The translations under genes and the position numbers were made by a program. The notes beneath the pieces were generated by a model. It was not told the DNA's origin, made no database searches, and worked only from the letters and a program-made list of their open reading frames with translations. Positions 3,175-20,710 of a DNA stretch of 64,000 nt are shown piece by piece (the stretch's first letter is position 1; each line of letters begins with the position of its first letter). The DNA comes from Halarcobacter sp. (GTDB lineage: Bacteria; Campylobacterota; Campylobacteria; Campylobacterales; Arcobacteraceae). The DNA is taken from contig OY781089.1 in assembly GCA_963676565.1 (NCBI GenBank), positions 2,464,001 through 2,528,000 on the forward strand, written 5' to 3'.

Positions 3175-3222
3175 TAAACTTACATTTTTAGCCTACTAAT
3201 TTCCCACTAATTATAAGATAAT
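3175..3222 (+). promoter_or_regulatory. Shared island promoter motif, copy 1 (TAAACTTACA-N9-TACTAA-N17-GATAAT) upstream of the renalase-like operon
   Basis: Same elements and spacing as the copies at 13809-13856, 15205-15251 and 20664-20710; this -10 is the weakest of the four. Confidence 0.6.
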
Positions 3223-3240
3223 AAAATAAAAAGTGGGAAA

Positions 3241-4167
3241 ATGAACGTAGCAATTATTGGAGCAGGTTTTAGTGGTTGTCACTTATATAAAAATCTATCA
3301 CAAAAACAATTTAGGGTAACTATCTTTGATAAATCAAGGGGATGTGGAGGGAGACTTAGTACCAAATATATTGGTGATAAGTTTATTGACCATGGAACCT
3401 CTTCAATTAATATACATGATAAAGAACTAATTGATTTTTTAGATAAAAAAGTTAAACAAAATATTCTTCAAAAAAGTGATAACAACTATATTCCAACAAA
3501 TGGAATAAACAAGCTTTGCTCTTCAATGATAGATAAAAAAGACCTAATTAACAATACTAGAATAATCAAAGCACATTATAAAAATAAAAAATGGTTTTTA
3601 TTTGATGAAAAAGGTAAAATGTACCAATCATATGATTTATTGTTATTAACTAATCCTGCAACACAAATTTTAGAAATGGATCTAAATCTTAATAATGAGA
3701 TAAAAGATTTGTTAAAAGATGTAAAATATACACCAATTAGTACACTTATTTGTTATGATAAAAATAGTAATGATTTAGATTTATCATCACTTGAAAAAAA
3801 TACTAATTTCAAAAAAGTTGTTGATAACTCATCAAAATATCAATACAAAGATTTTAAAAGTTTTGTATTACATTTAAATGAAGAATTTACACAAAAAAAT
3901 ATAGATCTTCCAAAAGAGAAGCTTTTTGAAAAGATTTATTCATTAATTAAAAAAGAGGTAAATATAGATATAAAAAATAAGTTTGAAACTATAGAACACC
4001 TTTGGAAATATGCTTTTGTAGAAAATACAATTAATAAAGAATATATTTTTGACACTAATCAAAACCTAGGGATTTGTGGGGATTATTTTCAAAAGAAGAA
4101 CCTAGAAGGTTCATTTTATAGTTCAAATAAATTATCAGAAAAAATCATAAATTTAATAAAGGAGTAA
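3241..4167 (+). CDS. NAD(P)/FAD-dependent oxidoreductase, renalase-like
   Basis: IIGAGFSG, FDKSRGCGGRLST, DHG at the N-terminus; HLWKYA and CGDY...LEGSF at the C-terminus. Confidence 0.85.
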   Translation: MNVAIIGAGFSGCHLYKNLSQKQFRVTIFDKSRGCGGRLSTKYIGDKFIDHGTSSINIHDKELIDFLDKKVKQNILQKSDNNYIPTNGINKLCSSMIDKKDLINNTRIIKAHYKNKKWFLFDEKGKMYQSYDLLLLTNPATQILEMDLNLNNEIKDLLKDVKYTPISTLICYDKNSNDLDLSSLEKNTNFKKVVDNSSKYQYKDFKSFVLHLNEEFTQKNIDLPKEKLFEKIYSLIKKEVNIDIKNKFETIEHLWKYAFVENTINKEYIFDTNQNLGICGDYFQKKNLEGSFYSSNKLSEKIINLIKE

Positions 4168-4169
4168 TT

Positions 4170-4451
4170 ATGTTTAAAGACGTAGTTTTCACAGCACTTG
4201 GTGCAACAAAAAAGATAAGAAAAAGTGTAAAAAAAGAGTTAAAAACTCTAGAAAAAAAAGGGATGTTAAGAAAAGAGGATTTAAAAACTTTTGTTGAGAA
4301 TCTTGAGGCTGAAGGAAAGATAGAAGATAAAAAGATAAAAAAAGAGATTAGATCAATGTTAAAAGAGATAATCAATGAACTTGGTCTTGCTACAAAAAAA
4401 GATCTTCAAAAAATGAAAACAGAGATTTTAGAAGAATTAAAAGGTAAATAG
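4170..4451 (+). CDS. Phasin-like small helical protein
   Basis: ALGA...KKG.L...D.K.FV and ELGLATKKDLQ pattern typical of phasin/PhaF-like proteins; AAGGAG RBS. Confidence 0.6.
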   Translation: MFKDVVFTALGATKKIRKSVKKELKTLEKKGMLRKEDLKTFVENLEAEGKIEDKKIKKEIRSMLKEIINELGLATKKDLQKMKTEILEELKGK

Positions 4452-4452
4452 T

Positions 4453-5511
4453 TTGAAATGTGACAAATGCAATGAAAAACTAGGATTTGAATCCTTACCA
4501 TCAAAAATATATTTTGTAAGTGAATTTGATGAGCTAATGGCAAAAAGCAGAATATTCTTAATGAAATTAGGTCTAAACTTATTTAAAGTTCATGATTTAC
4601 ACTATATAAAAGTTGAGGATACAAAAGAGTTTTTTAAATCAAATATTGACGCATTAAAAGGTCACTTTAATCAAATGGCAGCTCAAGATATAAAGATTTA
4701 TATTGATTATGAAAATTTAGGTTTTTCATACAAAATGGTTTTACATGCAAAACCATTACAAAGATTCATAAACATGATAGATGATAAAGAGTTTTTTGAT
4801 GTGATAAATAATCAATCCTTAACCTCGTATTTTCAGCCTATAGTTGATGTAAAGACAAACTCTATTTATGGGTATGAAACATTAATTAGAGGGGTTAAGG
4901 CCGATGGTTCCTTAATCTATCCAGATGAATTATTCGAAAAATCTGCTAGAAATGATATGAACTTTAAACTAGATAGGATGTGTAGAGAAAGTGCTTTAAA
5001 AACCGCTGCTACTAAAAAAGTTAATAAAAAAGTATTTATTAATTTTTTACCCACATCTGTTTATGATCCTGAGTTTTGTTTACAATCAACTGTCAAATGG
5101 GCAAAACAACTAGAAATAGACCCCTCAAATATTATATTTGAAGTTGTCGAGACAGAAAAAGTAACAGACCAAGAACATCTAAAATCTATTTTAGAATATT
5201 ATAGAAATGAAGGGTTTAAAATAGCTTTAGATGATGTTGGTGAAGGGTATTCTAGTTTAAATATGATAATTGAATTAAAACCTGATATTATCAAAATAGA
5301 TAGAAATATTATTAAAGATATAGACAAAGATGATTACAAAGTCTCTGTTTATAAAGCTTTAGCTAGTTTAGCAAGGGATAGAGATATTAAGATATTAGCT
5401 GAAGGTATTGAAACAGCTTATGAGTTAGAGGTTATAAAAGAGATTGGAGTTGACTATCTACAAGGTTATTACTTCGCTAAGCCTTTACCAGAACCAATTA
5501 GAAAGATCTAG
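4453..5511 (+). CDS. EAL-domain c-di-GMP phosphodiesterase with N-terminal CxxC
   Basis: FQPIV, YETLIRG (EAL variant), FINF, FEVVETE, IALDDVGEGYSSL, KIDR, AEGIET, QGYYFAKP. Confidence 0.88.
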   Translation: MKCDKCNEKLGFESLPSKIYFVSEFDELMAKSRIFLMKLGLNLFKVHDLHYIKVEDTKEFFKSNIDALKGHFNQMAAQDIKIYIDYENLGFSYKMVLHAKPLQRFINMIDDKEFFDVINNQSLTSYFQPIVDVKTNSIYGYETLIRGVKADGSLIYPDELFEKSARNDMNFKLDRMCRESALKTAATKKVNKKVFINFLPTSVYDPEFCLQSTVKWAKQLEIDPSNIIFEVVETEKVTDQEHLKSILEYYRNEGFKIALDDVGEGYSSLNMIIELKPDIIKIDRNIIKDIDKDDYKVSVYKALASLARDRDIKILAEGIETAYELEVIKEIGVDYLQGYYFAKPLPEPIRKI

Positions 5512-5522
5512 AAGGATACGTT

Positions 5523-7061
5523 ATAAAATATTTTTCACCCCTAAGGGTTTATCAAGTATTCACATTTTTATTAACAATATATTTAGTAATAAAAAGAAAA
5601 AAGAGTTTTTTATTACTAAAACCTTTAAAACCAAAAAAGCTAAAGGAGACTATTGTAAAACTAGGAGCTAGTTTTATTAAACTTGCTCAAGTATTAGCTA
5701 CGAGGTCTGATTTTTTCACAGAAGATTACCTTGATGAATTAAAGAATCTTCATGATCAAATTCCCCCTATGAGTCACAAACAATTCAAAGAGGTTTATAA
5801 TATCGCTTTTGAAAATAAAGATATTTTTGAAAGCTTCCAAGAGATACCTATTGCTTCAGCTTCAATTGGGCAAGTTCATGTGGCACATTTAAAAAATGGA
5901 AAAAAAGTAGCTGTAAAACTAAGAAGAATAGGAATAAAAGAACAAGTTTTAGCAGATATAAAGATTATTTCATTTTTTAACTTTTTATTTAAACCCCTGT
6001 TTTCATCATATACTAAAAATTCAATTGAAGCTGTAATTTCTGAATTTTCAAAAATGATAGTTGAAGAGATTAGTTTAAATCAAGAACTAAAAAATCTTAA
6101 AAACTTTAAAAAAGTATACAAAAAACAGAAAGTTAGATTTCCAAAAGGATATAAAAAATACTCATGTGATGATGCAATGGTTATGAGTTTTGAAGAGGGA
6201 TTTAGATTTGATGATAAAGAGAGTATTTTTAAAAATAACATTGATTTTAAATCAATTATCTCAAACCTAGTTGACTTTTATACAACCCAGATGTTGATAA
6301 CTGGATTTTTCCATGCGGACCCACATCCAGGTAACCTTTTAGTAAATAAAAAAGGGGAGCTTATTTTACTTGATTTTGGTATGGTAAAAACTGTACCAAA
6401 TGATAAAAGAATTGCTATTATTGAACTTATTAAAGCAGCTCATGAAAAAGATTATGAGACATATATTAGTGCTAGTAAAAGACTAGGTACTATTGCTTAT
6501 GAAGCACCAACAAGTGAATTAGCTGAGTTTACTGCAAAAATGTTTGATATATTTTCAAATGATAATCTAGATAGTGAATCTATGCAAAAACTTGCCTTTG
6601 AGATACTTGAAAGTACTAGAGATTTACCTTTTAAACTGCCAAGTGATGCAATTTATATTTTAAGAGTAAGTGCAATTATTGAAGGTCTTGGGACAACATA
6701 TATAGAAAACTTTAATGGTGTAAAAGATATTTTGCCAATATTAAACCAAAACTTACCAAAGGCGTTAGGAACAAAAAGTACCATAAGTGAAACACTTATT
6801 GCTGAAGCAAAAGAGTTGCCATTTATTGTAAAAGATTTTAAAGTAATGGTAAAAAAAGCTAGTGAAGGTACACTTGAAGTTGAAGTAAGCAGAAACCAGC
6901 TTGAGTATATAATTACAAGTTTAAAAAAAGTTTTAAAATCATATGCAATATCTTTTGGTTTTGTTTTAGCTTCAATGTTTTATTTAATGTATGGCTTTGA
7001 ACCAAAAGAGATATCAATCGTTTTATTTTTATTAGGATTTATAAGGGTATTTTACAAATGA
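5523..7061 (+). CDS. ABC1/UbiB (AarF) family atypical kinase; start extended to ATA at 5523
   Basis: IASASIGQVH, VAVK, FHADPHPGN, LLDFGM; frame stays open upstream of ATG 5769 and encodes the conserved LGASFIKLAQVLATRSD motif; in-frame TAG at 5499-5501; AAGGA 6 nt before ATA 5523. Confidence 0.85.
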   Translation: MKYFSPLRVYQVFTFLLTIYLVIKRKKSFLLLKPLKPKKLKETIVKLGASFIKLAQVLATRSDFFTEDYLDELKNLHDQIPPMSHKQFKEVYNIAFENKDIFESFQEIPIASASIGQVHVAHLKNGKKVAVKLRRIGIKEQVLADIKIISFFNFLFKPLFSSYTKNSIEAVISEFSKMIVEEISLNQELKNLKNFKKVYKKQKVRFPKGYKKYSCDDAMVMSFEEGFRFDDKESIFKNNIDFKSIISNLVDFYTTQMLITGFFHADPHPGNLLVNKKGELILLDFGMVKTVPNDKRIAIIELIKAAHEKDYETYISASKRLGTIAYEAPTSELAEFTAKMFDIFSNDNLDSESMQKLAFEILESTRDLPFKLPSDAIYILRVSAIIEGLGTTYIENFNGVKDILPILNQNLPKALGTKSTISETLIAEAKELPFIVKDFKVMVKKASEGTLEVEVSRNQLEYIITSLKKVLKSYAISFGFVLASMFYLMYGFEPKEISIVLFLLGFIRVFYK

Positions 7062-7303
7062 AAAAAATTGACTTGAATGAAGAGGACAAAAATAGGCTTA
7101 TTCAAATGGCCTGGCAAGATAGAACAACCTTTGAAGGGATAAAAAAAGAGTTTGGATTAACAGAAAATCAAGTTAAGAACTTAATGAGAAAACTAATATC
7201 AAAAAATGGCTTTAAAAGATGGAGAAAAAGAGTTCAAGATAGAACTACAAAACATGAGAAAAAAGTTGATTTTAAACCCATAAGATTTAAAGGTCCTTGG
7301 TAA
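7058..7303 (+). CDS. TIGR03643/DUF2805 family protein
   Basis: RLIQMAWQDRTTFE.IK.EFGL.E..V..LMR...FKRWRKRV signature; overlaps the kinase stop. Confidence 0.85.
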   Translation: MKKIDLNEEDKNRLIQMAWQDRTTFEGIKKEFGLTENQVKNLMRKLISKNGFKRWRKRVQDRTTKHEKKVDFKPIRFKGPW

Positions 7304-7306
7304 GAT

Positions 7307-9070
7307 TTAAATTAATACTACTTTATTCTTACCCTCATCTTTAGCTTTATATAAAGCATCATCAGCTCTTTTTAAAACTGTTGTAGAATCATCATCTAAA
7401 GCAAATAAAGTTAATCCAAAACTTGCTGTTACAGTTCCTACCGCTTCAAAGTTTTCAGATTCTATTGTTTTTCTTAAATCTTCCATTAATTTTAAACTTC
7501 CTTCCAATGAAGTTTCTGGACAAATTATAACAAACTCTTCTCCACCCCATCTTCCAAGATGGTCAACATTTCGGATATTTTCTTTTAAGATTTTAGCAAT
7601 TTTAATTAATACACTATCTCCAATTTGATGCCCATAATTATCATTTATATATTTAAAATTATCAATATCAATAATTGCAAGTGCAAAAGTATGATAATAT
7701 CTTTGTGAACGAATTATCTCATCTTGTAATAGTTCATCAATCTTAAATCTATTATTTATTCCTGTTAGTTTATCTGTAATTGCAAGATGTTCTAATTCAG
7801 ACTTTAATTTTTCTTTTGTTTCAAGCATATTATTTAAATAAATTGCCATTTGATTAAACTCTTTAAATAGTATTTTCCCACTATCTATTTTTGTTCTTTC
7901 ATTACTTGAATTTTCAAAGAAAGTATTAAACTCATCTATTGATTTTCTAATTCTTCTATTCCACCAAATCATTGAATATAATGATAAAAGAGTCAAACAA
8001 ATCATTAAAATACCAACTATATAAATCCTATTTTGTTGTTCCTCTTTTTGTTTTAATGCTTTATAAAATATTTCTGATTTCATTTCATCTAAATAAGAAC
8101 CTCCACCAATAGACCAATTCCATGGTTTAAAACCTTTTATATAAGCATACTTAGTTGTTTTTTGATCGGAATTAGGCTTTTTCCAAATATAATGAACAAA
8201 ATCACCCTCTTCTTGTTTTGCTACTTTATTAAACTCTTTTACAACGAATAAGCCATTTTCATCTTTAAAATTAAGCATGTTTTTTCCTACAATTTGAGGA
8301 TTTAAAGGATTCATTAAAACAGTTCCATCTAATTTATTTATAAAAAGATATTCGTGATTTCCATACCTAACTTCATTTAATCTATTTATTACCTCATTTT
8401 GAACAATTTTCTCATAATCTTTAACATATTCAGAAGTCCCAATATATAAATCAAAAGGTTCAAAATATTTTATAAAACCAATTTTTTTACTTTCATTTTT
8501 CTTATTATCTGTTCTATAAAAGTAGTATTCAACATATCCCTCTTTTTGTTTTGATGAAGCAATATATTTAAATAAATTATGAAGATTTATACCATGAGTA
8601 TCTTTATGATCTCTTAGAAAATAGGTGCCTTCATACTGGGGGAAAATAGGATGTAAAACAGTTTCTCCATCTAATTTTAAAATAAAAAAATACCCCCTGT
8701 CATCAAAAAATCTGAATTCTCTTAATGACTCTTTTATTATTGAAATAATCTCTTCATCTGATTTTGTATCTTTAAACTTATTGTATAAATTATCTGCAAT
8801 ATGATAAGCATCATAAATTTTATCTTTTAAAACTTCTTTTAGATTATTTTCTGCATTTATTCTTTTATATTTTATATAATCAATTGCATTTTCAACTTGA
8901 TTTTTAAGTAGAGTTTTTCTTTGTTCTAGTTGCATATTTTGGTAATTTTTGATGATTTGTTCAGAACTAAACCTTACTTCAAAAAACCAAAGTAGTGTTA
9001 AACTAAAGGTAAAGAAAAAAGAAACAAAAAGTATGATATTTGTAAAGGAAAAATGCTTCAAATATTTCAT
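7307..9070 (-). CDS. Cache-domain sensor diguanylate cyclase
   Basis: Two TM segments flanking tandem Cache-like regions (GYFFI..HP, EYLFI..NP, YIWKKP); DIDNFK.IND.YGH..GD and RWGGEEF. Confidence 0.9.
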   Translation of the reverse strand: MKYLKHFSFTNIILFVSFFFTFSLTLLWFFEVRFSSEQIIKNYQNMQLEQRKTLLKNQVENAIDYIKYKRINAENNLKEVLKDKIYDAYHIADNLYNKFKDTKSDEEIISIIKESLREFRFFDDRGYFFILKLDGETVLHPIFPQYEGTYFLRDHKDTHGINLHNLFKYIASSKQKEGYVEYYFYRTDNKKNESKKIGFIKYFEPFDLYIGTSEYVKDYEKIVQNEVINRLNEVRYGNHEYLFINKLDGTVLMNPLNPQIVGKNMLNFKDENGLFVVKEFNKVAKQEEGDFVHYIWKKPNSDQKTTKYAYIKGFKPWNWSIGGGSYLDEMKSEIFYKALKQKEEQQNRIYIVGILMICLTLLSLYSMIWWNRRIRKSIDEFNTFFENSSNERTKIDSGKILFKEFNQMAIYLNNMLETKEKLKSELEHLAITDKLTGINNRFKIDELLQDEIIRSQRYYHTFALAIIDIDNFKYINDNYGHQIGDSVLIKIAKILKENIRNVDHLGRWGGEEFVIICPETSLEGSLKLMEDLRKTIESENFEAVGTVTASFGLTLFALDDDSTTVLKRADDALYKAKDEGKNKVVLI

Positions 9071-9157
9071 TATTCTAGCCTAACTTTCTGCTTTTATTTT
9101 TATTTTACCATAAATTAACCTCTTATAATAAAATTATTAAAAATTAAATTTTTAATT

Positions 9158-9631
9158 TTATTTTTTATTCTTATAAGATATATATTCTTTTCTTACATCA
9201 ACTATAAAACCTTTTTTCAAAAATTCTCTACCCAATAAAATAGGATAATTCATCTTTTTTCTATTTGTTAATGTAAACTCTGTTTCAATATATTTTCCAA
9301 AAATAAAAACTTCTGTTAATATAACGTATCTTTTTTCTATAATTCCATTTGAACTTCTAACCTTTGCAATTCTTCTAATTGGAAGTTTAAACTTTTGATT
9401 CTTATATTTTTTGTGAGTTTCATCTAAAACATCAAAAACTACATATTTATCATCGATTGATTCAATAAAACTACAATGTAAAGATGAAGTTTTAGCTCCA
9501 GTGTCAATTTTTGCTCTTAAATCTTTTAAATTTAATAAAGGTAAATCTACTCGATCATATTTTCCTATTACAATATCTTTTGCGTATAAACTTGCAAGAA
9601 AAAAACATAAAACTAAAAGTTGTTTAATCAA
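9158..9631 (-). CDS. RimK/LysX-associated putative protease (retropepsin-like fold), exported
   Basis: Signal peptide; AKIDTGAKTSSLH, VRSSNG..EKRY, FTLTNR..MNYPILLGR. Confidence 0.82.
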   Translation of the reverse strand: MIKQLLVLCFFLASLYAKDIVIGKYDRVDLPLLNLKDLRAKIDTGAKTSSLHCSFIESIDDKYVVFDVLDETHKKYKNQKFKLPIRRIAKVRSSNGIIEKRYVILTEVFIFGKYIETEFTLTNRKKMNYPILLGREFLKKGFIVDVRKEYISYKNKK

Positions 9632-9649
9632 ATTATCTCTTTTATAAAA

Positions 9650-10162
9650 TTACTCTTGTATTGTCCAAATAAACTTTGAGGTATCAAAACCTTTTTTTGA
9701 GGCTATATCTATTAATCTTTTTTTCGTATTTTCATCAATTGTTTTTGTTCTACTTAATATCCAAAGATATTCTCTACTTGGACTTCCAACTAATGCATAT
9801 TTATAGTCTTTATCTAAATCAATAATCCAGTAATCTCCATAAAATGGTCTAAAGAAACTAACTTTTAATTTTGAATTAGTAATATCAGTAGCATAAGCTA
9901 CCCCTTTTGCTTCTTTTTTCTCATTAGTTTCAATTTTTGTACATCTGTTGATAACTCTTATTTTTTCATCTTCAAGTAAACTATAATTAGCTGTAACATT
10001 CTTGCATCCTTTTTCAAAAAAGTGTTCAAATCTAGCTATTTCATACCAAGTACCTAAGTACCTATTTAAATCAACTCTGTTTTCTGTTGCTAGGGGCTCA
10101 TACTTTGTTGAACATCCCACAAAAAAAATTATAGCTACTGTTAATATTAATTTTCTTATCAT
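9650..10162 (-). CDS. blc: Outer-membrane lipocalin
   Basis: Lipobox FVGC; RYLGTWYEIAR, KLKVSFF.PF.GDYW, YLWILSR. Confidence 0.9.
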   Translation of the reverse strand: MIRKLILTVAIIFFVGCSTKYEPLATENRVDLNRYLGTWYEIARFEHFFEKGCKNVTANYSLLEDEKIRVINRCTKIETNEKKEAKGVAYATDITNSKLKVSFFRPFYGDYWIIDLDKDYKYALVGSPSREYLWILSRTKTIDENTKKRLIDIASKKGFDTSKFIWTIQE

Positions 10163-10164
10163 CT

Positions 10165-11454
10165 TTACTCCTTTATTTTATATATGTTCTTTTTTACATC
10201 TAATGCCATTTGTTTATAATCAAAACTTGGTATCAACTCTTCTTTTCCAAGCCATTTTTTCACATACTCTTTTCCACCATAAAAGCTTGATTGTTTAACT
10301 GGGTCAAATATTCGATACTCTTTATCATTGCCAACACCTGCTTGATAAGCAAAGTTACCATAATTTGAAGCAGGATTATAATCTAATAAATACTCTTCAA
10401 AAAATGCTGCACAATATCTAAAATCTAAACCAAGATTTTTTATAAAATAGCTTGCTAATAATTGTCTTTGCCTATTACTTATCCAACCTGTCTTTTTTAG
10501 TTCTATAACTCCTGCATCAATTATATCAATGCCCGTCTTAGCATTAAAAAATAATTCTAATTTATCTTTATTATTTAAAAAATTATACTTTTTATAAATT
10601 AGTCCCTCTTTTAAAAAAAGTCTATTTTCACTTTGAAGCATTACAAAATGAAAAAAATCTCTCCAAAGTAATTCAAAAAAAATCCAATAAGAAGATTTTG
10701 AAACTCCTAATTTGTTTTCATACTCTTTTATTTTATAATACAAAGTTTTAACACTAATACAACCACTTGCTAAATAAGAGGAAAACTTTGTGGAATTATT
10801 AAATCCATCTACTAAACTTCTAGTATCATAATAAATGTGGATATATTTAGATAAATATTCATCAACTCTTTTCAAGGCGTTTGTTTCTCCACCTTTTAAA
10901 ACTCTTTTATTTTCGTCAAAAGATAAGTTTATCTCTTCAATTTTTATACACATAAAAAGTTTATCTTTTGAATCAATCACTTTTATAGGTTCTTTTATAG
11001 TCATTTTTTCTGCTTTTTTTCTAAAATGACTAAAACTTTTAGTGTAATCAAACTCAAATGGTTCTAACATTGTTTGATTAAAGAAGCTTTTACCCTTGTA
11101 TTTTTCTAGCTTCTTTTCAAATTTCCTTTCTTCAACTCCGACTTCTTTTTCAAAAAAAACTCTTAAATCATAATCTTCATTTAAAAGCTCAAGTGTTATT
11201 TGTATATCCTCAACTATATAAAGCCAAATATTTTTTTTCAGTAAATTTTTCTTTAAATCAATTAAGGACTCATAAATAAATTGTTTTCTAAACTCTCCAC
11301 ATTTATTAAATCCAAGATTATTCCCTTTTAAAATCTCCAAAGAATAAAGACATATCATATTTTCACAGCATTTTGAGGCTTCATTTAAAGCTAGATTATC
11401 ATGTATTCTAAGATTGTTTCTAAAAACTGTAATACAAAGTTTTGGCTTACTCAC
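10165..11454 (-). CDS. Cryptochrome DASH-family flavoprotein (atypical; see findings)
   Basis: FRNNLRIHDN, GGET, STKFSSYLA.GCIS, FELLWRDFF, SNRQRQ, AGVGND; likely start GTG 11454 after GAGGAG, overlapping the upstream stop. Confidence 0.85.
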   Translation of the reverse strand: MSKPKLCITVFRNNLRIHDNLALNEASKCCENMICLYSLEILKGNNLGFNKCGEFRKQFIYESLIDLKKNLLKKNIWLYIVEDIQITLELLNEDYDLRVFFEKEVGVEERKFEKKLEKYKGKSFFNQTMLEPFEFDYTKSFSHFRKKAEKMTIKEPIKVIDSKDKLFMCIKIEEINLSFDENKRVLKGGETNALKRVDEYLSKYIHIYYDTRSLVDGFNNSTKFSSYLASGCISVKTLYYKIKEYENKLGVSKSSYWIFFELLWRDFFHFVMLQSENRLFLKEGLIYKKYNFLNNKDKLELFFNAKTGIDIIDAGVIELKKTGWISNRQRQLLASYFIKNLGLDFRYCAAFFEEYLLDYNPASNYGNFAYQAGVGNDKEYRIFDPVKQSSFYGGKEYVKKWLGKEELIPSFDYKQMALDVKKNIYKIKE

Positions 11455-12835: not shown

Positions 12836-12853
12836 CTTAGTTCCAATATGTGT

Positions 12854-13789
12854 TTAAGCACATCTGTTTTCAAATAAATCTTTTAGAGTTTCAAGGAAAT
12901 ATTGATTATGGTTTGGAGCCTTTGCTACTCTATAATCTTTTATTCCAACCTCATCGGCAATCTCTTTATACTCAATGTCAAGTTCAAATTGTGTTTCAGA
13001 GTTATCTACTGTAAAAGATATTGGATAAACAATAACCTTTTTATCTTTCATCTCATGAAGCTTATCATCCATATATGGTCTAATCCATTCCATTGGTCCT
13101 AGTCTAGACTGATATGCTGTATGTATATTCTTAAACTTAATACCTTGTTTTTCTAACTCCTTCTTTGCACACTCTACATTTGCAAGAATATGCTTTTGAT
13201 AAGGATCACCTTTATCTATAGTTCTTTGAGTTAAACCATGTGCAGAAAAGATTAATTCAAACTCTTCTGATTTATCATCTCCTAATGTCTCTTTTATTCT
13301 CTCTACTATTGCTTTATTATATAACTCATGGTCATAATATGAATCTAAGGTTTTAATCTTACCTTTAATACCTAATTTCTTTGCCCATTTTTCAAACTCT
13401 TCAATTGATGATTTAGTTGTAGTTGAAGAATAGTGTGGATACATTGGAATTGCATATATTTCATCATAAGGCTTTAAGTCTTTTAATACATCTTTAGCAA
13501 AAGGTGGTGTGTATCTCATCTTATAAAATACATCAGCATCAACTATTTTTTCTAGTCTTCTAGCTAATCTTTTTGTATGACCTACTATTGGAGACATTCC
13601 CCCTAGAGCTTTATAGTTTTCTTTTGCTTCTTTTTTTCTCATACTTGTAATAAAAAAGCCTATCATTGCTCTTATTGGTTGTGGAGCTCCAATTATATAT
13701 TTATCATTAAACATGTTTGTTAGGAAAACCTCTACCTCATTTAGGTTATTAGGTCCTCCCATGTTCATTAGTACAATTGCTTTTTTCAC
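12854..13789 (-). CDS. hemH: Ferrochelatase
   Basis: MNMGGP, MRYTPPF, PMYPHYS.TT, FSAHGL, GDPY, YQSRLGPMEW, FTVDNSET.FELD; GTG start after AAGGA. Confidence 0.95.
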   Translation of the reverse strand: MKKAIVLMNMGGPNNLNEVEVFLTNMFNDKYIIGAPQPIRAMIGFFITSMRKKEAKENYKALGGMSPIVGHTKRLARRLEKIVDADVFYKMRYTPPFAKDVLKDLKPYDEIYAIPMYPHYSSTTTKSSIEEFEKWAKKLGIKGKIKTLDSYYDHELYNKAIVERIKETLGDDKSEEFELIFSAHGLTQRTIDKGDPYQKHILANVECAKKELEKQGIKFKNIHTAYQSRLGPMEWIRPYMDDKLHEMKDKKVIVYPISFTVDNSETQFELDIEYKEIADEVGIKDYRVAKAPNHNQYFLETLKDLFENRCA

Positions 13790-13808
13790 TTATATCCTTT
13801 TTATTAGG

Positions 13809-13856
13809 ATAATATTTAAATTGGCTGTTTTTTTGTATGTAATTCTTGTTAGTTTA
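13809..13856 (-). promoter_or_regulatory. Shared island promoter motif, copy 2 (TAAACTAACA-N9-TACAAA-N17-TATTAT) upstream of hemH
   Basis: Read on the minus strand; same spacing as the other three copies. Confidence 0.65.
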
Positions 13857-14316
13857 TATTATTTTGTTGAGATAAAATTTCTTTAGTGATTTTATGTCTA
13901 AAGCTAAACATACTATCTAATTCTTTTTTTACAAAGAAATTAAAAAGCTTACCAAATCTTCCAAAGGGTAAAACATATAAAACTTCATCTTTCAATTCTA
14001 CACTATTACCTCTTTTAGTAAATATATGGGAATGTTTCCAATACCTAAATGGAGACTTCATCGCAAAATCTACAAGTAAATTAGGTTTTTGATTTTTTAA
14101 TATCTTAACTTCCCAATATATTGGAATAGGCATAAGTTTTTTTACTGTTTTTAATCGTAGAACTTCATGCTCTTTTGCTTCAAAGCTATCATTTAACATA
14201 GTTACTTTCATATCAGGAGGAGTAATCTTTATTAAATTATTTGAATCAAGATGAAACTCATATAACTCCTCTACTGTACAGTTTTTTATTAATGAAGTTT
14301 TCTCATACTTAAACAT
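13849..14316 (-). CDS. SRPBCC (START-like) family protein
   Basis: FH....NL.KITPP, D...KSPF.YW.H.H.F, D.V.Y.LPFG and FSFRH motifs. Confidence 0.85.
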   Translation of the reverse strand: MFKYEKTSLIKNCTVEELYEFHLDSNNLIKITPPDMKVTMLNDSFEAKEHEVLRLKTVKKLMPIPIYWEVKILKNQKPNLLVDFAMKSPFRYWKHSHIFTKRGNSVELKDEVLYVLPFGRFGKLFNFFVKKELDSMFSFRHKITKEILSQQNNIN

Positions 14317-14320
14317 TTAC

Positions 14321-15175
14321 TTAGCCTACTAAATCTTCTATAGTATCTTCTATATTTGTATATTTAAATTTAAAACCACTATCAATTAATCTTTTTGGTT
14401 TAGCACATTGTCCATCAGTTAAAACCTTTGCACCTTCACTAAATATCAAGTTTAATGCAAACTCAGGTACGGGGAATATTGTAGGTCTATTTAAAGTTTT
14501 TCCTAAAGCTTTTGTAAGTCCTAAATTAGTTGTTGGTGTTGGTGCTGTTAAGTTATACACCCCTTCACATTGTTTATTTTCTATTACATGTTCATAGGCA
14601 TCCAATAAATCACTTATATGAATAAATGAAAAATTTTGTTTCCCATCTCCAATGGTACCACCAACTCCAAGTTTAAATGGAGTTAACATCTTTTTTAAAG
14701 CTCCGCCATCACCTAATACAATACCAAATCTAAATATTGCTGTTCTAATATCTAATTCTTTAGCCTTTAAAGCTTCAGCTTCCCAATCTTTTGCTAATTT
14801 ACCTAAAAAATCTTTTGAATAATTAAAGTCATCTTCGTTATAACAAGCAATATTGTCATATATACCAACTGCTGAAGTTGATATTAAAAGTTCAGTTTTT
14901 TTTTCTGCTTTTTCAAAGGCTTTGATTAAAGCTTTTGTAGTATCTATTCTACTAGAGTATAATAATTTTTTATAAGACTCAGTCCATCTGTTGATAATAT
15001 TTGCACCAGCAAGATTAATAACTACATCTGCTTTTTCTATAGTTTTTGTAAGCTCTTTTATATCTTTAAGGGTTTCTCTTTTGATTCCAATTACTTTAAA
15101 TCCCTTATTCTCAAATCTATTTTTAATACTAGTACCAACAAAACCACTTGAGCCAGTTATTGCTAAAGTTTTCAT
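14321..15175 (-). CDS. TIGR01777 family oxidoreductase/epimerase
   Basis: ITGSSGFVG, INLAGA.I..RWT, SRIDTT, SAVGIY, RFGIVL, GGTIGDGKQ, P..L...GF.F.Y. Confidence 0.9.
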   Translation of the reverse strand: MKTLAITGSSGFVGTSIKNRFENKGFKVIGIKRETLKDIKELTKTIEKADVVINLAGANIINRWTESYKKLLYSSRIDTTKALIKAFEKAEKKTELLISTSAVGIYDNIACYNEDDFNYSKDFLGKLAKDWEAEALKAKELDIRTAIFRFGIVLGDGGALKKMLTPFKLGVGGTIGDGKQNFSFIHISDLLDAYEHVIENKQCEGVYNLTAPTPTTNLGLTKALGKTLNRPTIFPVPEFALNLIFSEGAKVLTDGQCAKPKRLIDSGFKFKYTNIEDTIEDLVG

Positions 15176-15204
15176 ATCTACTCCTTTGCAATTTAATTTT
15201 ACAA

Positions 15205-15251
15205 ATTATAATATATTTATGATTTATTGGTATATTTTATTTGTTAGTTAA
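15205..15251 (-). promoter_or_regulatory. Shared island promoter motif, copy 3 (TTAACTAACA-N9-TACCAA-N16-TATAAT) upstream of TIGR01777
   Basis: Perfect TATAAT -10 16 nt after TACCAA; nearly identical to the ybgA copy. Confidence 0.72.
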
Positions 15252-15257
15252 ACCTTT

Positions 15258-15965
15258 TTAAAAACTTCTTTTATCTAGATATTCTCTAAAATCTTTTGCC
15301 CCATCCTTAGAACTTGTCACAATATCATCAATTCCATTAAATGATATCTCTAACTTAGATTGTTCTACACTTTGCATAGATTTAATCTTATCTACATTTA
15401 CAATATATGACCTATGTATCCTAAAGAAATTTTTACCTTCTAATACAGACTGCATATCTCCAATCTTTTTTCGTAAGTAAGCATCTGCATCTTTGATTTT
15501 TATAATAACTTCATCTAAATCAGCTTTGATATAAAAAATATCATCTATATCAATAAGATAGATTTTATTTCCTCTTTTTGCCACAAGTTTTTTTGTTTCA
15601 TCAGCTTTTACAATATATTTTTTCATTTTATCCAATGAGTTTTTTATTGATTCATTTGAAATTGGTTTTAGTAAATAATCAATACCACCACTTTGAAAAG
15701 CTTCAAGTGCATGCTCTTCATATGCAGTTTGAAATATAATAAAAGTTTTTGGATTTAAATTTACTATTGTGTTTGCTAACTCTAAACCATTCATATCTGG
15801 CATTGATATATCTAAAAAGGCAACATCAAACTTCTCTTTACTTAAAATTTTTATTGCTTCAATAGCACTAGAACAAGCAGTAACATCTAAAATCCCTTCT
15901 TCATTTAAAAGTCTATTTAATCTACTAAGTGCTAATTTTTCATCATCTACTATCAATACTTTCAA
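15258..15965 (-). CDS. LytTR-family response regulator
   Basis: Receiver VDDE...FLDISMP...TAY...YLLKP; LytTR domain FFRIHRSYIVN. Confidence 0.93.
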   Translation of the reverse strand: MKVLIVDDEKLALSRLNRLLNEEGILDVTACSSAIEAIKILSKEKFDVAFLDISMPDMNGLELANTIVNLNPKTFIIFQTAYEEHALEAFQSGGIDYLLKPISNESIKNSLDKMKKYIVKADETKKLVAKRGNKIYLIDIDDIFYIKADLDEVIIKIKDADAYLRKKIGDMQSVLEGKNFFRIHRSYIVNVDKIKSMQSVEQSKLEISFNGIDDIVTSSKDGAKDFREYLDKRSF

Positions 15966-15967
15966 TA

Positions 15968-16957
15968 CTAATCCTTCAAGCTTATTATAAATTTCATACT
16001 AGAACTATCTACTTGATGGCTTAATCTTCCAACATCAAGCAGATCTAATCTTTTATCAAGATTATTTAAACCTGTTCCATATTTTATTCTTTGAGATAGT
16101 TTACCATTATTTATTATAACAATCTGCTTTGAAGAAACTAAAACATCTATTTTTAGTTTATTTCTATTATATCCATGCTTTATTGCATTTTCTACTAATA
16201 GTTGAATAGAAAACTTAGGTACTAAAATATTTTCATCATCTTCATTTAACTCAACATTTAGTTCAATATTATTCTCAAACCTAATATTTTCAATATTTAA
16301 ATAGGTTTTAACCATATCAATTTCAGTTTTAATTGGAATTAAACTCTCTTTAGTAATGGCATTACGTAAAAACCTAGATAACTCAAGGGTTGCTCTCTCT
16401 GCATCTTTTTTATCTACATATATTAATTCAGAAATAGAATTTAAGGCATTAAATAAAAAATGTGGATTTAATTCATTTTCTAAAGCTTTAATTTTTGTTT
16501 CTAAAACTTGAGAATGTATATTTTCATATCTATGTTTCATTGATACAAATTGGTGTAATATTAGTCCAATTAAAAATGTGAGAAATCCAATAATTATAGA
16601 GATAAAAAACCAATAAGGACTTATAAACTCTACTATTTCAATTTTAAAAAAAGAACCAAAATAAAAACTAAAAGAGAAACCTAAAAACCCAGATAAAAAT
16701 GAGAAAAAGAAACTAATCAAATACCAAAATTTCTCTTTGAGCTTTGGTAATATAAAATCATTTGAGATTGTAATAAATACAAAAGAAAATAAAGAGATAC
16801 AAAAAGCCGTTAAACTACTAAAAAGTACTGTGTATACATTTTTGAATTCTTCATTTAGAAAATAGAAAAACCAAGAGATTAAAAACCCAAAACTAGTTCC
16901 TATAAATATTATATAAAGCCAGTCTCTTTTTGAAATTTTTAATTTTATTCTATCCAT
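15968..16957 (-). CDS. LytS/YehU-type membrane sensor histidine kinase
   Basis: About 4 TM helices; ELNPHFLFNALNSI H-box, YL.IE.IRF, QLLVENAIKHG, GTGL.NL..RL. Confidence 0.9.
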   Translation of the reverse strand: MDRIKLKISKRDWLYIIFIGTSFGFLISWFFYFLNEEFKNVYTVLFSSLTAFCISLFSFVFITISNDFILPKLKEKFWYLISFFFSFLSGFLGFSFSFYFGSFFKIEIVEFISPYWFFISIIIGFLTFLIGLILHQFVSMKHRYENIHSQVLETKIKALENELNPHFLFNALNSISELIYVDKKDAERATLELSRFLRNAITKESLIPIKTEIDMVKTYLNIENIRFENNIELNVELNEDDENILVPKFSIQLLVENAIKHGYNRNKLKIDVLVSSKQIVIINNGKLSQRIKYGTGLNNLDKRLDLLDVGRLSHQVDSSSMKFIISLKD

Positions 16958-18368
16958 TAAATTCCTTGTTTAAAGCTTTTACTCCAATTGCAACGCCAGG
17001 CCATCCTTGACCTGCAAAAACTGAGTCTCCAATATTGTATAAACCTTTAAAGGGTGTTTTAGCACTAGGAGTTGAAAAAATATTTTTCATAGTAATAGCT
17101 CTACCTCCACAATTATATCTATTTACATACCTGTTAAAGGTAAGTGAAGTAGCACTAAATTTTTTTATTATATCCTCTTTTTTTATAGTATTAAGTTTCT
17201 GCAATAGTTTTTCTATAATAAACTCTTGGGTTTGCTCTTTTTTTAATTCATACTCATCTTTATCTAACTTTTTCCAAAAAGAAGCCTTTGTATGAGAAGA
17301 GATTGTAACTGAGAATCCCCTTTTTGACATCTTTTCATCATCTTTACTACTAATAGAGATAAAAAATGAATTTGAGATACAATTTGGTATCTGTTCATCA
17401 AGAATTATTAAATAATGGTGTAAAAGATCATAATTTTTTTCTAATACCAAATTTACTACAAAAGCACTTTGGTCATTGAACTCAAAACTATCATAATATT
17501 TTTTTATTCTTTCATCTTCAAAAAGTTTTCCACTATCATAAATAGTAGAGTTTAATACTACATTCTTTGATAAATATTCATCTTTATTTGAGATTAGTCT
17601 AAAATAGTCTTTTTCTAAAACTATTTTTATAATCTCCTCTTTTTTCTTAATTTCAATATCTTCAAGTAAACCATCAAATAAACTACCCATTCCACCATTT
17701 ACATAAAATACATCATGAAAAGGGTATGAAAGCCCTAAAGCTAAAGAAAGAAGTGATATATCCTTTGATGTTGTTTGTAAAGTAATCAAAAGTTGTGCAT
17801 CAATAAAATGTTGATACTCTAAACTTATATTTCCAAGGGTTTCTTTTATAAAACTATTTGCACTTTTAAATACTTCAATATTAAAACTTCTAAAAAGTTT
17901 AATTAGAGTATTTGCACTAAGTATATAAGATTTTAAAGAATATTTTCCATAATAAATATCATGGATTTGCCAAAACTTTTCATCAAGCTCTTTAATTTTG
18001 GCCCAAAAAGCTCTATTATTTTTATTTGGGAAAGCTTTATTAATTTGGTCTAAAAACTCTTCAAAATCTTTTACTCTATCAATTGTTTTTCCATTTTGAA
18101 AAACTCTAAAAGCTATATTGCTTTTTTTGATATCAGGATTATAATTTGCATAATCAAAAATCTCTTTTACAGGATGGTTTTCTTCAAAGCCTACAAAAGT
18201 AGTTGCCCCACTATTAAAAAAACTTCCATATCTTTTAAAAGTACTTGCACATCCTCCTAAGTTTGAATCCTTTTCAAATACCACTATATCTTTATCGCTA
18301 TTTAATGAGGCAAACATACTGCCTCCCATTCCAGAGCCAATTACACAGAGTTCATAATATCTACACAT
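16950..18368 (-). CDS. FAD-dependent oxidoreductase, phytoene desaturase/CrtD-like
   Basis: VIGSGMGG, FEK...LGGCASTFKR.G..F.SGAT, GGMG, GLY.IGDSVFAGQGWPGV; probable start ATG 18368 overlapping the photolyase end. Confidence 0.75.
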   Translation of the reverse strand: MCRYYELCVIGSGMGGSMFASLNSDKDIVVFEKDSNLGGCASTFKRYGSFFNSGATTFVGFEENHPVKEIFDYANYNPDIKKSNIAFRVFQNGKTIDRVKDFEEFLDQINKAFPNKNNRAFWAKIKELDEKFWQIHDIYYGKYSLKSYILSANTLIKLFRSFNIEVFKSANSFIKETLGNISLEYQHFIDAQLLITLQTTSKDISLLSLALGLSYPFHDVFYVNGGMGSLFDGLLEDIEIKKKEEIIKIVLEKDYFRLISNKDEYLSKNVVLNSTIYDSGKLFEDERIKKYYDSFEFNDQSAFVVNLVLEKNYDLLHHYLIILDEQIPNCISNSFFISISSKDDEKMSKRGFSVTISSHTKASFWKKLDKDEYELKKEQTQEFIIEKLLQKLNTIKKEDIIKKFSATSLTFNRYVNRYNCGGRAITMKNIFSTPSAKTPFKGLYNIGDSVFAGQGWPGVAIGVKALNKEFNG

Positions 18369-19692
18369 TTTTAGCCTCTTTAAATCTATCAATTGCCATT
18401 TTTCTTGATAAAGAGATATCAACAATAGATTTTGGGTAATCAACAAATAAATTTGACTGAACACCATTTTCAATATGAAAAAGTCTAGGAGATAAACTCT
18501 CAAACTCTTTTATAACTGATTTTATAAAAATACCCTCTTTATCAAACTTTTGTGATTGGGTATAGGGATTAAATACTCTAAAATATGGTGCAGCATCAGC
18601 ACCTGTACTTGCTCCCCATTGCCATGAGCCAACATTTGAAGAGCATTCATAATCAAGTAGTTTTAGGGCAAAATACTCTTCCCCTTTTTTCCAATTTATA
18701 AAAAGGTTTTTTGTTAAGAATGAACAAACTATCATTCTAAGACGATTATGCATTGTTCCTGTTTCATTTAGATGTCTCATAGCAGCATCTATAATTGGAA
18801 CTCCAGTATTTCCTTCACACCATTTTAAAAAATCATCTTCATTTTCATTCCATTTAATACTCATACCATTAAAGTTATCAAATTGTGAATGTGGGAAGTG
18901 ATATAAAATATAATTGTAAAATTCTCTCCAAAAAAGTTCTCTAATAAACCCTTCACTGTTATCAAATTTTCTATAATAATTAAACAGTTGTCTTGGACTA
19001 ACTATTCCAAATCTTAGATGAACCGATAGTTTTGAGGTACCATCTTTAAAAAAGTAGTCCCTACTTTCTTGATAATCTTCTAATTTCGAAGAAAAATCTT
19101 CCATAAGCCTACACACATTTTTATTTAAAAACTCAGGTAATTGTACTTCTTTAAAACCCATTTCATCTAAAGTAGGAAATTTTTCATAATCAAAATCAAT
19201 TTTTTTAAGAGTTTCATTAAATTTGTATGTTTCTATATTATTTGATTGAGTTAACATAGCCATTGATTTGTAATATGGAGTAAAAACCTTATAAGGAGTC
19301 CCATCATTTTTTAAATGTTCACTTGGATGAGTGATAAAAGAATCATAAAACCTTTTCATAGGTAGAAGTTCTTCTATCTGATTATCCCTATTTTTTGCAT
19401 AATCATCAAAATCGCATGAGCATAAGATCTCATCAAAACCATCTTTTAATTTCCCAATAACTTCCTTTGGTTCACCATAAAAAATAGCTAAGTCAAGACC
19501 TTTTTGTTTTAATTGTTCTTTAAGACTTAGAACACTTTTATAAATAAAAGTAACTCTTTTATCATCTTTAGGGAGAGATTCTAAAATATTCTTATCAAAA
19601 ATAAAAATAGGCAATACTTCATCTTTTGCATATGAAAGTATTGCATTATCTTCTATTCTAAGATCTCTTCTAAACCAAAGGATTTGTCTCAT
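18361..19692 (-). CDS. phr: Deoxyribodipyrimidine (CPD) photolyase, class I/III type
   Basis: WFRRDLRIEDN, YKVFTPY, TSKLS.HL.FG, ELFWREFY, MHNRLRM, N.GSWQW.ASTG.DAAPYFRVFNP. Confidence 0.93.
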   Translation of the reverse strand: MRQILWFRRDLRIEDNAILSYAKDEVLPIFIFDKNILESLPKDDKRVTFIYKSVLSLKEQLKQKGLDLAIFYGEPKEVIGKLKDGFDEILCSCDFDDYAKNRDNQIEELLPMKRFYDSFITHPSEHLKNDGTPYKVFTPYYKSMAMLTQSNNIETYKFNETLKKIDFDYEKFPTLDEMGFKEVQLPEFLNKNVCRLMEDFSSKLEDYQESRDYFFKDGTSKLSVHLRFGIVSPRQLFNYYRKFDNSEGFIRELFWREFYNYILYHFPHSQFDNFNGMSIKWNENEDDFLKWCEGNTGVPIIDAAMRHLNETGTMHNRLRMIVCSFLTKNLFINWKKGEEYFALKLLDYECSSNVGSWQWGASTGADAAPYFRVFNPYTQSQKFDKEGIFIKSVIKEFESLSPRLFHIENGVQSNLFVDYPKSIVDISLSRKMAIDRFKEAKNV

Positions 19693-20642
19693 TATTTAAA
19701 AGCCTCCACTTTAGATCTAAGTGCCATTTCCTTAGGATATGGAGTTAAGAACTTTTGATTATCAAGATATTCAATATTAAATCTTTTTACATAAATTTTT
19801 ATGATTTTAATAACTGCTACTAAAGGGATGATATGTTCTTTAAACTCATCTAAAGCAGCTAATATCTCATGTTTTTCCTCTTTTGTAATATATTTTTTAA
19901 AATATCCAAAAATATGCATTAAGACATTATAAGTGCTTGAAGTTCTACCCTTCAAGGCTATAGCTTCTAAAAACTTTTGTTTGTATAAAGATAATACCTC
20001 TTCAATATCTTTCTTCTCATGATTTGCAACAATTTGACCTAACTCTTTATATGACTTCTGAGATTTTGAATAAATAAGGTATTTATATGAAGTATGAAAA
20101 TCAACTAATTGACCAAATGATGGTTGTGTTTTCATAAACTCAAAAACATCTTTATAGGCAAATACTTGCATTAGAAAGTTTTCTTTTAACCATGGATCAG
20201 TTAATCTTCCTTCTTCTTCTATTGGAAGTAAGGGAAATTTTTCCATAAGCTCTTTGGCAAAAACTCCCACACCAACATTTTCACTTTGACCTTCGCCATC
20301 TGGATAAATTTTCACTCTAGCCATTCCACAAGTTGGAGATTTTGATTTTAAGATATAACCACAAAGTTCATCTTCACTAATAGTATCAACTAATCTTTTA
20401 GAGACACCAACAATATCTTTTGTAACATCTTGTTTAGTGTTTGTTGTTCTTATTATAAGTTCACCATTTATTCTTACTTGTCTAATAGCTTCTCTAGGAG
20501 TTGGATAGATTTCACCTTCTGGGCAAAAAGATCTAAATTCAAAATGTTTTGACAATTCGTCATAAACAAATTTATCCTTAGAATGTTGACCATCATATCG
20601 ACACTGTATTCCAAGTAAACATGTAGAAATACCAATTTTCAT
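19692..20642 (-). CDS. ybgA: YbgA family DUF523-DUF1722 fusion (TudS/RudS-type thiouridine desulfidase)
   Basis: ISTCLLG..CRYDG, FCPE, KSKSPTCG, EEEGRL, FH..YKY, NVLMHIFGYFK; directly upstream of phr as in E. coli ybgA-phr. Confidence 0.9.
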   Translation of the reverse strand: MKIGISTCLLGIQCRYDGQHSKDKFVYDELSKHFEFRSFCPEGEIYPTPREAIRQVRINGELIIRTTNTKQDVTKDIVGVSKRLVDTISEDELCGYILKSKSPTCGMARVKIYPDGEGQSENVGVGVFAKELMEKFPLLPIEEEGRLTDPWLKENFLMQVFAYKDVFEFMKTQPSFGQLVDFHTSYKYLIYSKSQKSYKELGQIVANHEKKDIEEVLSLYKQKFLEAIALKGRTSSTYNVLMHIFGYFKKYITKEEKHEILAALDEFKEHIIPLVAVIKIIKIYVKRFNIEYLDNQKFLTPYPKEMALRSKVEAFK

Positions 20643-20663
20643 CTTTAACCCTTTTTTTGTTTT

Positions 20664-20710
20664 ATTGTAACAAAATGAGGTATTTTTGGTATATTTTGTA
20701 TGTCAGTTTA
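20664..20710 (-). promoter_or_regulatory. Shared island promoter motif, copy 4 (TAAACTGACA-N9-TACCAA-N16-TACAAT, extended -10 TGnTACAAT) upstream of ybgA
   Basis: Read on the minus strand; same architecture as the other copies. Confidence 0.72.

Follow-up and report, generated by a model that had tools for sequence, protein, structure and literature searches.

The region examined here is a 64,000-nt stretch of the genome of Halarcobacter sp. (assembly GCA_963676565.1, contig OY781089.1, positions 2,464,001 to 2,528,000 of the forward strand), referred to below as the window. Its 5′ part holds a photo-oxidative-defence island, as judged from Pfam and NCBIfam scans, in which four promoters share a two-part DNA element. 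In each case a first conserved block, box 1, is followed at a fixed distance by a second block, box 2, and then by a -10 hexamer. An earlier note on this DNA took the element for the operator of a light-stress regulon driven by a LytTR-family regulator, with an activator-like placement at sigma-70 -10 sequences. The comparative results presented here support that reading, on grounds other than those first offered. From its sequence context, the box is predicted to be, and probably is, the operator of a LytTR activator that controls a photo-oxidative-stress regulon.

Direct reading of the coding strands returned the sequences, strands, coordinates and internal N9 spacer of the four sites as earlier noted, and likewise the distances of 17, 17, 16 and 16 nt from box 2 to the -10 hexamers of promoters 1 to 4 (Table 1). 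Promoter 1 precedes the operon of a 308-aa NAD_binding_8 flavoprotein, previously called the renalase operon, and promoter 2 precedes the island copy of hemH. Promoter 3 lies immediately 3′ of the stop codon of the regulator gene, ahead of a TIGR01777 gene, a position that is kept in relatives. Promoter 4 precedes an operon of ybgA, photolyase, flavoprotein, kinase and regulator genes. A partial extra copy of box 1 (TAAACTAAAACA) is present at 3160-3171 (+), 15 nt upstream of the box of promoter 1; such a second copy was seen only there and not at the other three sites.

Table 1. Boxes, promoters and genes of the island and its regulon. Positions are those of the window unless marked otherwise; negative positions lie 5′ of it.
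Feature	Position	Strand	Details
Promoter 1	3173..3222	+	box 1 3173-3184, box 2 3193-3199, -10 GATAAT 3217-3222; 22.8 bits
Promoter 2	13809..13858	-	box 1 13858-13847, box 2 13838-13832, -10 TATTAT 13814-13809; 26.1 bits
Promoter 3	15205..15253	-	box 1 15253-15242, box 2 15233-15227, -10 TATAAT 15210-15205; 20.8 bits
Promoter 4	20664..20712	-	box 1 20712-20701, box 2 20692-20686, -10 TACAAT 20669-20664; 24.9 bits
Box at lipocalin gene inside cfa operon	-3518		21.8 bits
Box at SDR gene, head of cfa operon	-6006		16.0 bits
Box at OvoA-type gene	-124,683		124.7 kb upstream of the window, genome position 2339317; 21.4 bits
Response regulator, receiver and LytTR domains	15258..15965	-	PF00072 E 2.5e-27; PF04397 E 7.5e-21
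Histidine kinase, LytS/His_kinase type	15968..16957	-	PF06580 E 5.3e-23
CrtD/CrtI-like FAD oxidoreductase	16950..18368	-	472 aa from likely start M46
Tail of cfa operon	1..3167	+	end of CFA-synthase homolog, DUF3833, HD-domain protein, ThiD, CbiX (Pfam)
Genes behind promoter 1	3241..7303	+	308-aa flavoprotein, 93-aa protein, EAL phosphodiesterase
Operon behind promoter 2	9158..13789	-	hemH, photolyase-related protein (DPRP), DASH cryptochrome, lipocalin, Zn-protease-like
Island hemH	12854..13789	-
Operon behind promoter 3	13849..15175	-	TIGR01777 oxidoreductase, 155-aa protein
First genes of operon behind promoter 4	18361..20642	-	ybgA (DUF1722 and 2-thiouracil desulfurase domains), CPD-photolyase-like gene
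HD/HD_5 gene	845..2014	+	c-di-GMP type
EAL gene	4453..5511	+	c-di-GMP type
dCache-GGDEF gene	7307..9070	-	c-di-GMP type

The response regulator encoded in the island is the single LytTR protein found in the genome by profile search, and its match to PF04397 reached 74.6 bits against a cut-off of 22.6. Residues D7, D8, D52 and K100 of the receiver are invariant among 28 orthologs, D52 being the phospho-acceptor. In a structural model with a pLDDT of 85.6, the best full-length fold match was ComE (4cbv, E 1e-14), and the C-terminal domain superposed on the LytTR domain 3d6w with a TM-score of 0.89 and a root-mean-square deviation of 1.4 Å over 106 columns. In sequence searches of the PDB, the whole protein returned receiver domains only, and the C-terminal part gave weak LytTR matches (AgrA, E 0.015). 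The nearest named NCBIfam model was BtsR (E 3e-40), which stayed under its cut-off.

The neighboring kinase has an N-terminal half of four hydrophobic segments, judged by eye. No soluble sensor domain was detected in it by Pfam, nor was a 5TM LytS-type sensor or a GAF domain. The membrane part is highly conserved: D12, W13, N66, W78 and an FSF..G..G stretch are invariant in 28 orthologs of the kinase, as is H166 in the conserved NPHFLFN stretch. The end of the flavoprotein gene overlaps the start of the kinase gene by 8 nt, and the gene is conserved beside the kinase. The flavoprotein matched the CrtD and carotenoid-isomerase models of NCBIfam, both under their cut-offs, and its closest solved chain was 4rep, a gamma-carotene desaturase (E 4e-15). 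As listed, its open reading frame (ORF) is 517 aa long (16950-18503, -), with a 143-nt overlap into the photolyase gene. Since the orthologs measure 461-477 aa, translation probably begins at the ATG at 18368, which yields a protein of 472 aa.

The anatomy of the element was described from 65 non-redundant sites, which gave the consensus aa-N3-TATnAACTnACA-N8-[A/C]TACnAA-N17-TAnAAT. Box 1 (TATnAACTnACA) and box 2 ([A/C]TACnAA) are separated by 8 nt. Conservation was also found at positions that had not been used in site picking. The TAT ahead of AACT (positions -4 to -2) is conserved at 0.63, 0.74 and 0.82, position 16 is A or C in 62/65 sites, and the AA at positions 21-22 is conserved at 0.95 and 0.88. 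The spacers between the conserved parts are free to vary.

The position of the box relative to the promoter is equally well defined. A TAnnnT hexamer lies 16-18 nt after box 2 in 57/65 sites, compared with 177/1170 flank positions (15%), and 40 of the 65 have a spacer of exactly 17 nt. The start codon follows box 1 at a median distance of 69 nt (interquartile range 65.5-73; 63 sites). Box 2 is a poor -35 element, since all 65 sites match TTGACA at only 2-3 of its six positions. This geometry, with a -10 hexamer at fixed distance, a poor -35 and box 2 over the -35 position, matches that of an activator-dependent sigma-70 promoter. If transcription starts about 7 nt after the -10 hexamer, box 1 would span approximately -56 to -45 and box 2 approximately -36 to -30. 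In relatives, divergent target operons carry a separate box each, pointing at the respective gene; therefore, the element is directional.

Generic upstream regions of this genome look different. In a crude alignment of 732 of them on the best -10 sequence, no -35 signal was present, and G was enriched two bases before the hexamer. This -35-less, TGn-type promoter style is known from Campylobacter and Helicobacter. Sigma-70 therefore does not account for the strong conservation at the -35 position of the boxes. Nor are the boxes enriched in the TGn extension, G being found at the extended -10 position in 11/65 sites.

A two-part, asymmetric motif with a fixed spacer that contains AAC could also represent the promoter of an alternative sigma factor of the extracytoplasmic function (ECF), sigma-E-ChrR type, with the two boxes as its -35 and -10 elements. 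Such a reading comes naturally, since other bacteria have singlet-oxygen regulons under sigma-E. AAC is present in many ECF -35 elements. The gene set of the island moreover equals the core sigma-E regulon, as described in the accessible text of PMC3546557. Nevertheless, this explanation is close to refuted, and we regard it as highly improbable. No ECF sigma factor was found in the genome: PF04542 and PF04545 matched only the 643-aa RpoD, which is the only protein with sigma-70 regions 2 and 4, and the best match to region 4_2 (PF08281) in the whole genome, at 19.5 bits, was under the cut-off. An ECF promoter would also leave unexplained the separate conserved TAnAAT that lies 17 nt further down. 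In addition, the AAC-TAC gap is 14 nt, shorter than the N18 of the TGATC-N18-CGTAT motif given in the available part of PMC5241685, and TGATC occurs in none of the four promoters.

The specificity of the element was examined at several levels. In the window, the pattern WAACTDACA-N9-TACHAA matched four times against a mean of 0.01 in 100 shuffles, a comparison that is circular because the pattern was derived from the same four sites. In the whole genome (3,340,668 bp, 28% GC), there were five exact matches, four of them within the 17.5-kb island; the fifth (genome position 3252784, minus strand) lies at the 3′ end of a gene and has no -10 hexamer at the right distance. A weight matrix was then built from 59 training sites in other genomes, with this genome and its two closest relatives excluded. 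The matrix scan gave eight matches of at least 20 bits, compared with one in the reversed-genome control. Two of the eight are intragenic and were taken as chance matches. One of these two, a 24.0-bit match (genome position 2320069, minus strand), falls within a TerB-DnaJ reading frame and for that reason was not accepted as a promoter; it is situated just upstream of two small BFD-like [2Fe-2S] ORFs and might conceivably be an internal promoter.

Chance similarity in AT-rich intergenic DNA was considered in view of the low GC content of the genome, at which loose patterns are common. Indeed, a pattern search that allowed one mismatch (five genomes of one genus) returned as many matches as its control and is hence uninformative. 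The clustering of exact matches in the island, the excess of matrix matches over the control, and the family-wide and order-wide comparisons described below refute this explanation. The two-part element is real, and the earlier observation of four sites is confirmed.

The first reading of the window undercounted the sites, as the matrix scan revealed three more boxes in the same genome. These belong to a lipocalin gene inside the cfa operon, an SDR gene at the head of that operon and an OvoA-type gene. The SDR site reads TCAAAAGACA-N9-TACAAA-N17-TAAAAT, and a perfect box is present at the SDR gene in relatives. A box upstream of the cfa operon had been predicted; the strong site proved to lie inside the operon, and only a weak one was found at its head. 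The OvoA-type gene (709 aa; genome positions 2337120-2339246, -) encodes DinB_2, FGE-sulfatase and methyltransferase domains and lies 125 kb from the island. The regulon in this genome thus comprises seven promoters, those of hemH, ybgA, the 308-aa flavoprotein, TIGR01777, the cfa-operon lipocalin, the OvoA-type gene and the SDR gene.

Orthologs of the regulator were found in 98/151 genomes of the family, representing 14/22 genera, and 20 kb around the regulator were taken from 40 of these genomes. The kinase gene adjoins the regulator gene in 40/40 of these family loci, among photolyase, ybgA, hemH, TIGR01777, cfa-operon and related genes. The flavoprotein gene is present in 43/45 loci (40 from the family and five from other families). 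Relatives were searched with the AACTnACA-N9-TAC core of the four sites of this genome, allowing at most one mismatch and demanding a TAnnnT 16-18 nt after box 2 and an ORF start 45-100 nt downstream. This search recovered 81 promoter-placed sites in 37/40 family loci and none in the reversed sequences. The gene that follows the box is most often ybgA (14 sites), followed by TIGR01777 and hemH (10 each), and the 155-aa protein, the flavoprotein and the 93-aa protein (5 each). Photolyase accounts for 4 sites, island-type lipocalin and ThiD for 3 each, SDR, cfa-operon lipocalin, DPRP and EAL for 2 each, and the kinase for 1; the remaining 13 sites precede other genes. In relatives, the operon of flavoprotein, kinase and regulator is itself headed by a box, and the same is seen in named database records. 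Control of their own operon is common among two-component regulators.

Beyond the family, the kinase was found in seven genomes of four other families of the order, among 301 genomes sampled across the phylum. In these loci, the kinase identity is 36-57% and the GC content reaches 50%. Six of the seven carry matrix matches of 15.8-26.5 bits, even at 44-50% GC, and the boxes precede flavoprotein, hemH, TIGR01777, ybgA, photolyase or amine-oxidase genes. A search with the kinase alignment returned, among the 80 loci listed, mostly generic LytS-family kinases aligned over the catalytic core only. Full-length matches among those listed came from at least four loci (Arcobacter sp., two Campylobacterales metagenome-assembled genomes and Sulfurospirillum sp.).

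Genomes that lack the regulator provided a further comparison. In the 98 genomes with the regulator, the strict pattern gave 229 matches compared with 71 in the control; the 53 regulator-less genomes had 33 compared with 61. Fourteen of the latter keep the photolyase, and together they have 8 strict matches against 18 in the control (hand tally). At 11 photolyase loci without the regulator, the box is absent in nine, where the photolyase genes lie closely behind other genes; in each of the two that keep it, a conserved position is mismatched. Orthologs of the OvoA-type gene are preceded by a box-like site of at least 10 bits in 10/22 genomes with the regulator and in 0/8 without it. hemH was dropped as a control target because the regulator-less genomes hold only a 46-51%-identical housekeeping paralog in another operon.

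Taken together, these comparisons support a LytTR operator. The regulator is syntenic with the target genes, a box precedes its own operon, and enrichment of the box is observed only where the regulator is present. Furthermore, the genome has a single LytTR protein and no ECF sigma factor, and a TAnnnT follows at 16-18 nt in most sites. The argument originally advanced for a LytTR operator was a different one, namely that reverse complements of the boxes match the LytTR 9-mer [TA][AC][CA]GTTN[AG][TG]. The quoted matches are correct as strings, and the argument drawn from them is weak. The genome contains 4086 matches to the 9-mer, or one every 818 bp, and only 16/65 sites fit it on the reverse strand of box 1; hence, such matches are no evidence for LytTR. 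Nor would the 9-mer be a defining feature, because LytTR sites have no common consensus according to the Introduction of PMC4847170.

Several observations weigh against a LytTR activator as the reader of the box. Most described LytTR operators have two recognisable repeats of 9-11 nt. The Introduction of PMC4847170 likewise describes LytTR sites as two direct or inverted repeats of 9-11 nt placed 11-13 nt apart. The present box is not a clear direct repeat. Its self-similarity score stays below zero whatever the offset, and nothing corresponds to the CTnACA part of box 1. The only self-similarity is TAYnAA (TATnAA versus TACnAA); its best offset among 6-31 nt is 21 nt, the next being 13 nt. 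The site architecture in that Introduction implies a two-turn spacing of the same 21 nt, a weak point in favour of a LytTR operator. Activation is also hard to judge from promoter weakness, because ordinary promoters of this group lack a -35 element as well. The presence and absence comparisons draw on related genomes, which are not independent samples, and co-occurrence is confounded with gene content because the regulator-less genomes mostly lack the whole island.

Two individual genomes count on the same side. A draft assembly of about 200 contigs (G114) keeps three good boxes, one at hemH and two on contig C99 (25.4 and 21.0 bits, the latter ahead of a 298-aa gene), and searches of the assembly revealed no LytTR domain and no flavoprotein. 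A closed genome without the LytTR gene or the flavoprotein (G131) keeps one decayed box at ybgA (AACGACA...), with an additional consensus TATAAT about 20 nt downstream. The latter arrangement may be a relic box with a replacement promoter acquired after loss of the activator, an anecdotal case.

The boxes of G114 and the missing tandem repeats would both fit a different, unlinked transcription factor that binds the box, with the LytTR system as a mere member of the regulon. In G114, the hemH contig (3462 nt) ends where relatives carry the module; either the module falls in an assembly gap, or the box has another binder. We consider a separate binder improbable. No other conserved DNA-binding regulator was found in the 40 family and seven other-family loci, and the only other regulator near the island in the window is an OmpR-type pair that lies outside it. 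Moreover, the enrichment of the box disappears in the 53 regulator-less genomes, including the 14 that retain the photolyase.

Alternatively, the same LytTR regulator might act as a repressor that occupies the -35 region in the dark and is released on stress. Box 2 overlaps the -35 position, where repressors bind too, and ordinary promoters here need no -35, so that the -10 hexamer alone might suffice once the site is empty. This mode of action appears unlikely. The distance from the box to the -10 hexamer is constant within 1-2 nt across five families, which is typical of an activator that contacts the polymerase. The TGn extension, enriched in generic upstream regions, is missing at the boxes. 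Loss of the regulator does not simply leave the old promoter behind: the box is gone in 9/11 loci, where the photolyase genes closely follow other genes, and the extra TATAAT of G131, although anecdotal, points in the same direction.

The results show the element with its geometry, conservation and gene set, and its co-occurrence with the regulator. The identity of the binder, its action as an activator and not a repressor, and the kind of signal are our inferences, and a working model can be outlined as follows. The membrane histidine kinase, probably acting with the CrtD-like flavoprotein, would respond to oxidative damage generated by light. As it has no detected soluble sensor domain, the kinase may sense photo-oxidative damage in the membrane, possibly via the flavoprotein, and would then phosphorylate the LytTR response regulator. 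The phosphorylated regulator would bind box 1 and box 2, a site overlapping the -35 position, and recruit sigma-70 polymerase to promoters that have no usable -35 element. At least seven promoters would thereby be turned on, serving photolyase/cryptochrome genes, the CFA-synthase operon, the second ferrochelatase, TIGR01777, lipocalin and SRPBCC-like genes, together with an EAL gene, an ovothiol-synthase-type gene and the regulator's own operon. A more specific proposal is doubtful but deserves mention. The flavoprotein, the four-helix kinase and the LytTR regulator might form a three-part sensor of light or singlet-oxygen damage which, in Arcobacter-type and other Campylobacterales, takes the place that sigma-E-ChrR and LitR devices have in other bacteria. 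The flavoprotein might either absorb blue light or convert an oxidised membrane lipid into a signal read by the kinase in the membrane, and the regulator might act from a non-repeat site over the -35 position.

The system can be compared with the known LytTR operators (AgrA P2/P3, ComE, PlnC/D, VirR, BtsR/YehT and YpdB). As in those systems, a receiver-LytTR regulator lies beside a PF06580-type kinase, the own operon is under the box, and the site adjoins a sigma-70 promoter or lies a short way upstream of it. The sole internal self-similarity, although weak, falls at the spacing implied by the Introduction of PMC4847170, and ComE is the best full-length fold match of the regulator. Unlike those operators, the two halves of the present box differ from each other and share only TAYnAA. 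The proximal repeat of AgrA is centred near -60 in the available text of PMC4227749, whereas the proximal half lies on the -35 position here. The system also differs in its function, photo-oxidative defence instead of quorum sensing, bacteriocins, autolysis or pyruvate uptake, and in its kinase, which has only four membrane segments, lacks a GAF domain and comes paired with a flavoprotein.

The gene content resembles the sigma-E-ChrR regulon of Rhodobacter sphaeroides and Vibrio cholerae in its photolyase, CFA-synthase homolog and SDR/amine-oxidase-like/DUF1365/DUF3833 operon. The conserved core of that regulon, according to the accessible part of PMC3546557, consists of the photolyase, the CFA-synthase homolog and the RSP1091-1087 operon, and a CFA synthase of V. 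cholerae is induced by blue light in the part available of PMC5241685. The present system differs in that a two-component system stands in the place of an ECF sigma factor and anti-sigma factor, and the promoter motif is unrelated to TGATC-N18-CGTAT as given in that same part of PMC5241685, whose title and abstract name a MerR-like regulator.

Light regulators of the LitR/CarH and MerR types act on photolyase and photoprotection genes of non-phototrophs via promoter-overlapping operators. Those operators are repressor sites, unlike the present box, which resembles an activator site. Among the 29 ORFs of window positions 1-27 kb and the 10 upstream ORFs, no MerR or B12-binding protein was found, the search being confined to these and not extended to the rest of the genome.

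None of the parts is new in kind: the two-component system is of the LytS/LytTR type, the operator is promoter-proximal, and the genes belong to singlet-oxygen defence. A literature search, made mostly without subscription journals, returned no paper linking LytTR to photolyase, singlet oxygen, blue light or Arcobacter, and the combination of a LytTR system, this operator and singlet-oxygen defence genes is undescribed in the literature so searched. To our knowledge, few devices for light or singlet-oxygen sensing are known in non-phototrophs (sigma-E-ChrR, B12-dependent LitR/CarH, LOV and BLUF). Quorum sensing, autolysis and nutrient scavenging are the roles otherwise associated with the LytTR family; in the present case, a two-component system of this family appears to govern the same defence genes. 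With seven promoters, the regulon is compact; it is sharply defined by the 24-nt box and conserved across five families. The box offers a cheap annotation handle for photo-oxidative-stress genes in Campylobacterales, and it flags unexpected members such as the second ferrochelatase, the ovothiol-synthase-type gene, thiamine genes and c-di-GMP enzymes.

The remaining genes of the island were assigned as follows. The cfa operon begins 5′ of the window with SDR, SnoaL, MFS, lipocalin, amine-oxidase-like, DUF1365, CFA-synthase homolog and DUF3833 genes, after which come the HD protein, ThiD and CbiX. Behind promoter 1, a 257-nt gap separates the EAL gene from ABC1 kinase-like and DUF2805 genes, which are putative members of the same operon; boxes are found ahead of orf93-ABC1 and EAL genes in relatives. 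The operon behind promoter 2 is co-directional with short gaps, and its DASH cryptochrome matched TIGR02765 at 327 bits against a cut-off of 317. The 155-aa protein behind promoter 3 had no family match in Pfam or NCBIfam. The head of the operon behind promoter 4, with ybgA and the CPD-photolyase-like gene, shares its operon with the sensor module.

The hemH of the island encodes a second ferrochelatase, which, if induced by stress, might hold down the accumulation of photosensitising protoporphyrin. Three genes of c-di-GMP type (HD/HD_5, EAL and dCache-GGDEF; Table 1) lie in or beside the regulon, an arrangement that hints that light stress feeds into c-di-GMP signalling. Directly 5′ of the cfa operon, and hence 5′ of the window, lie three signalling genes with PAS domains, which encode a 721-aa sensor kinase, a receiver-PAS protein and a 667-aa multi-PAS kinase.

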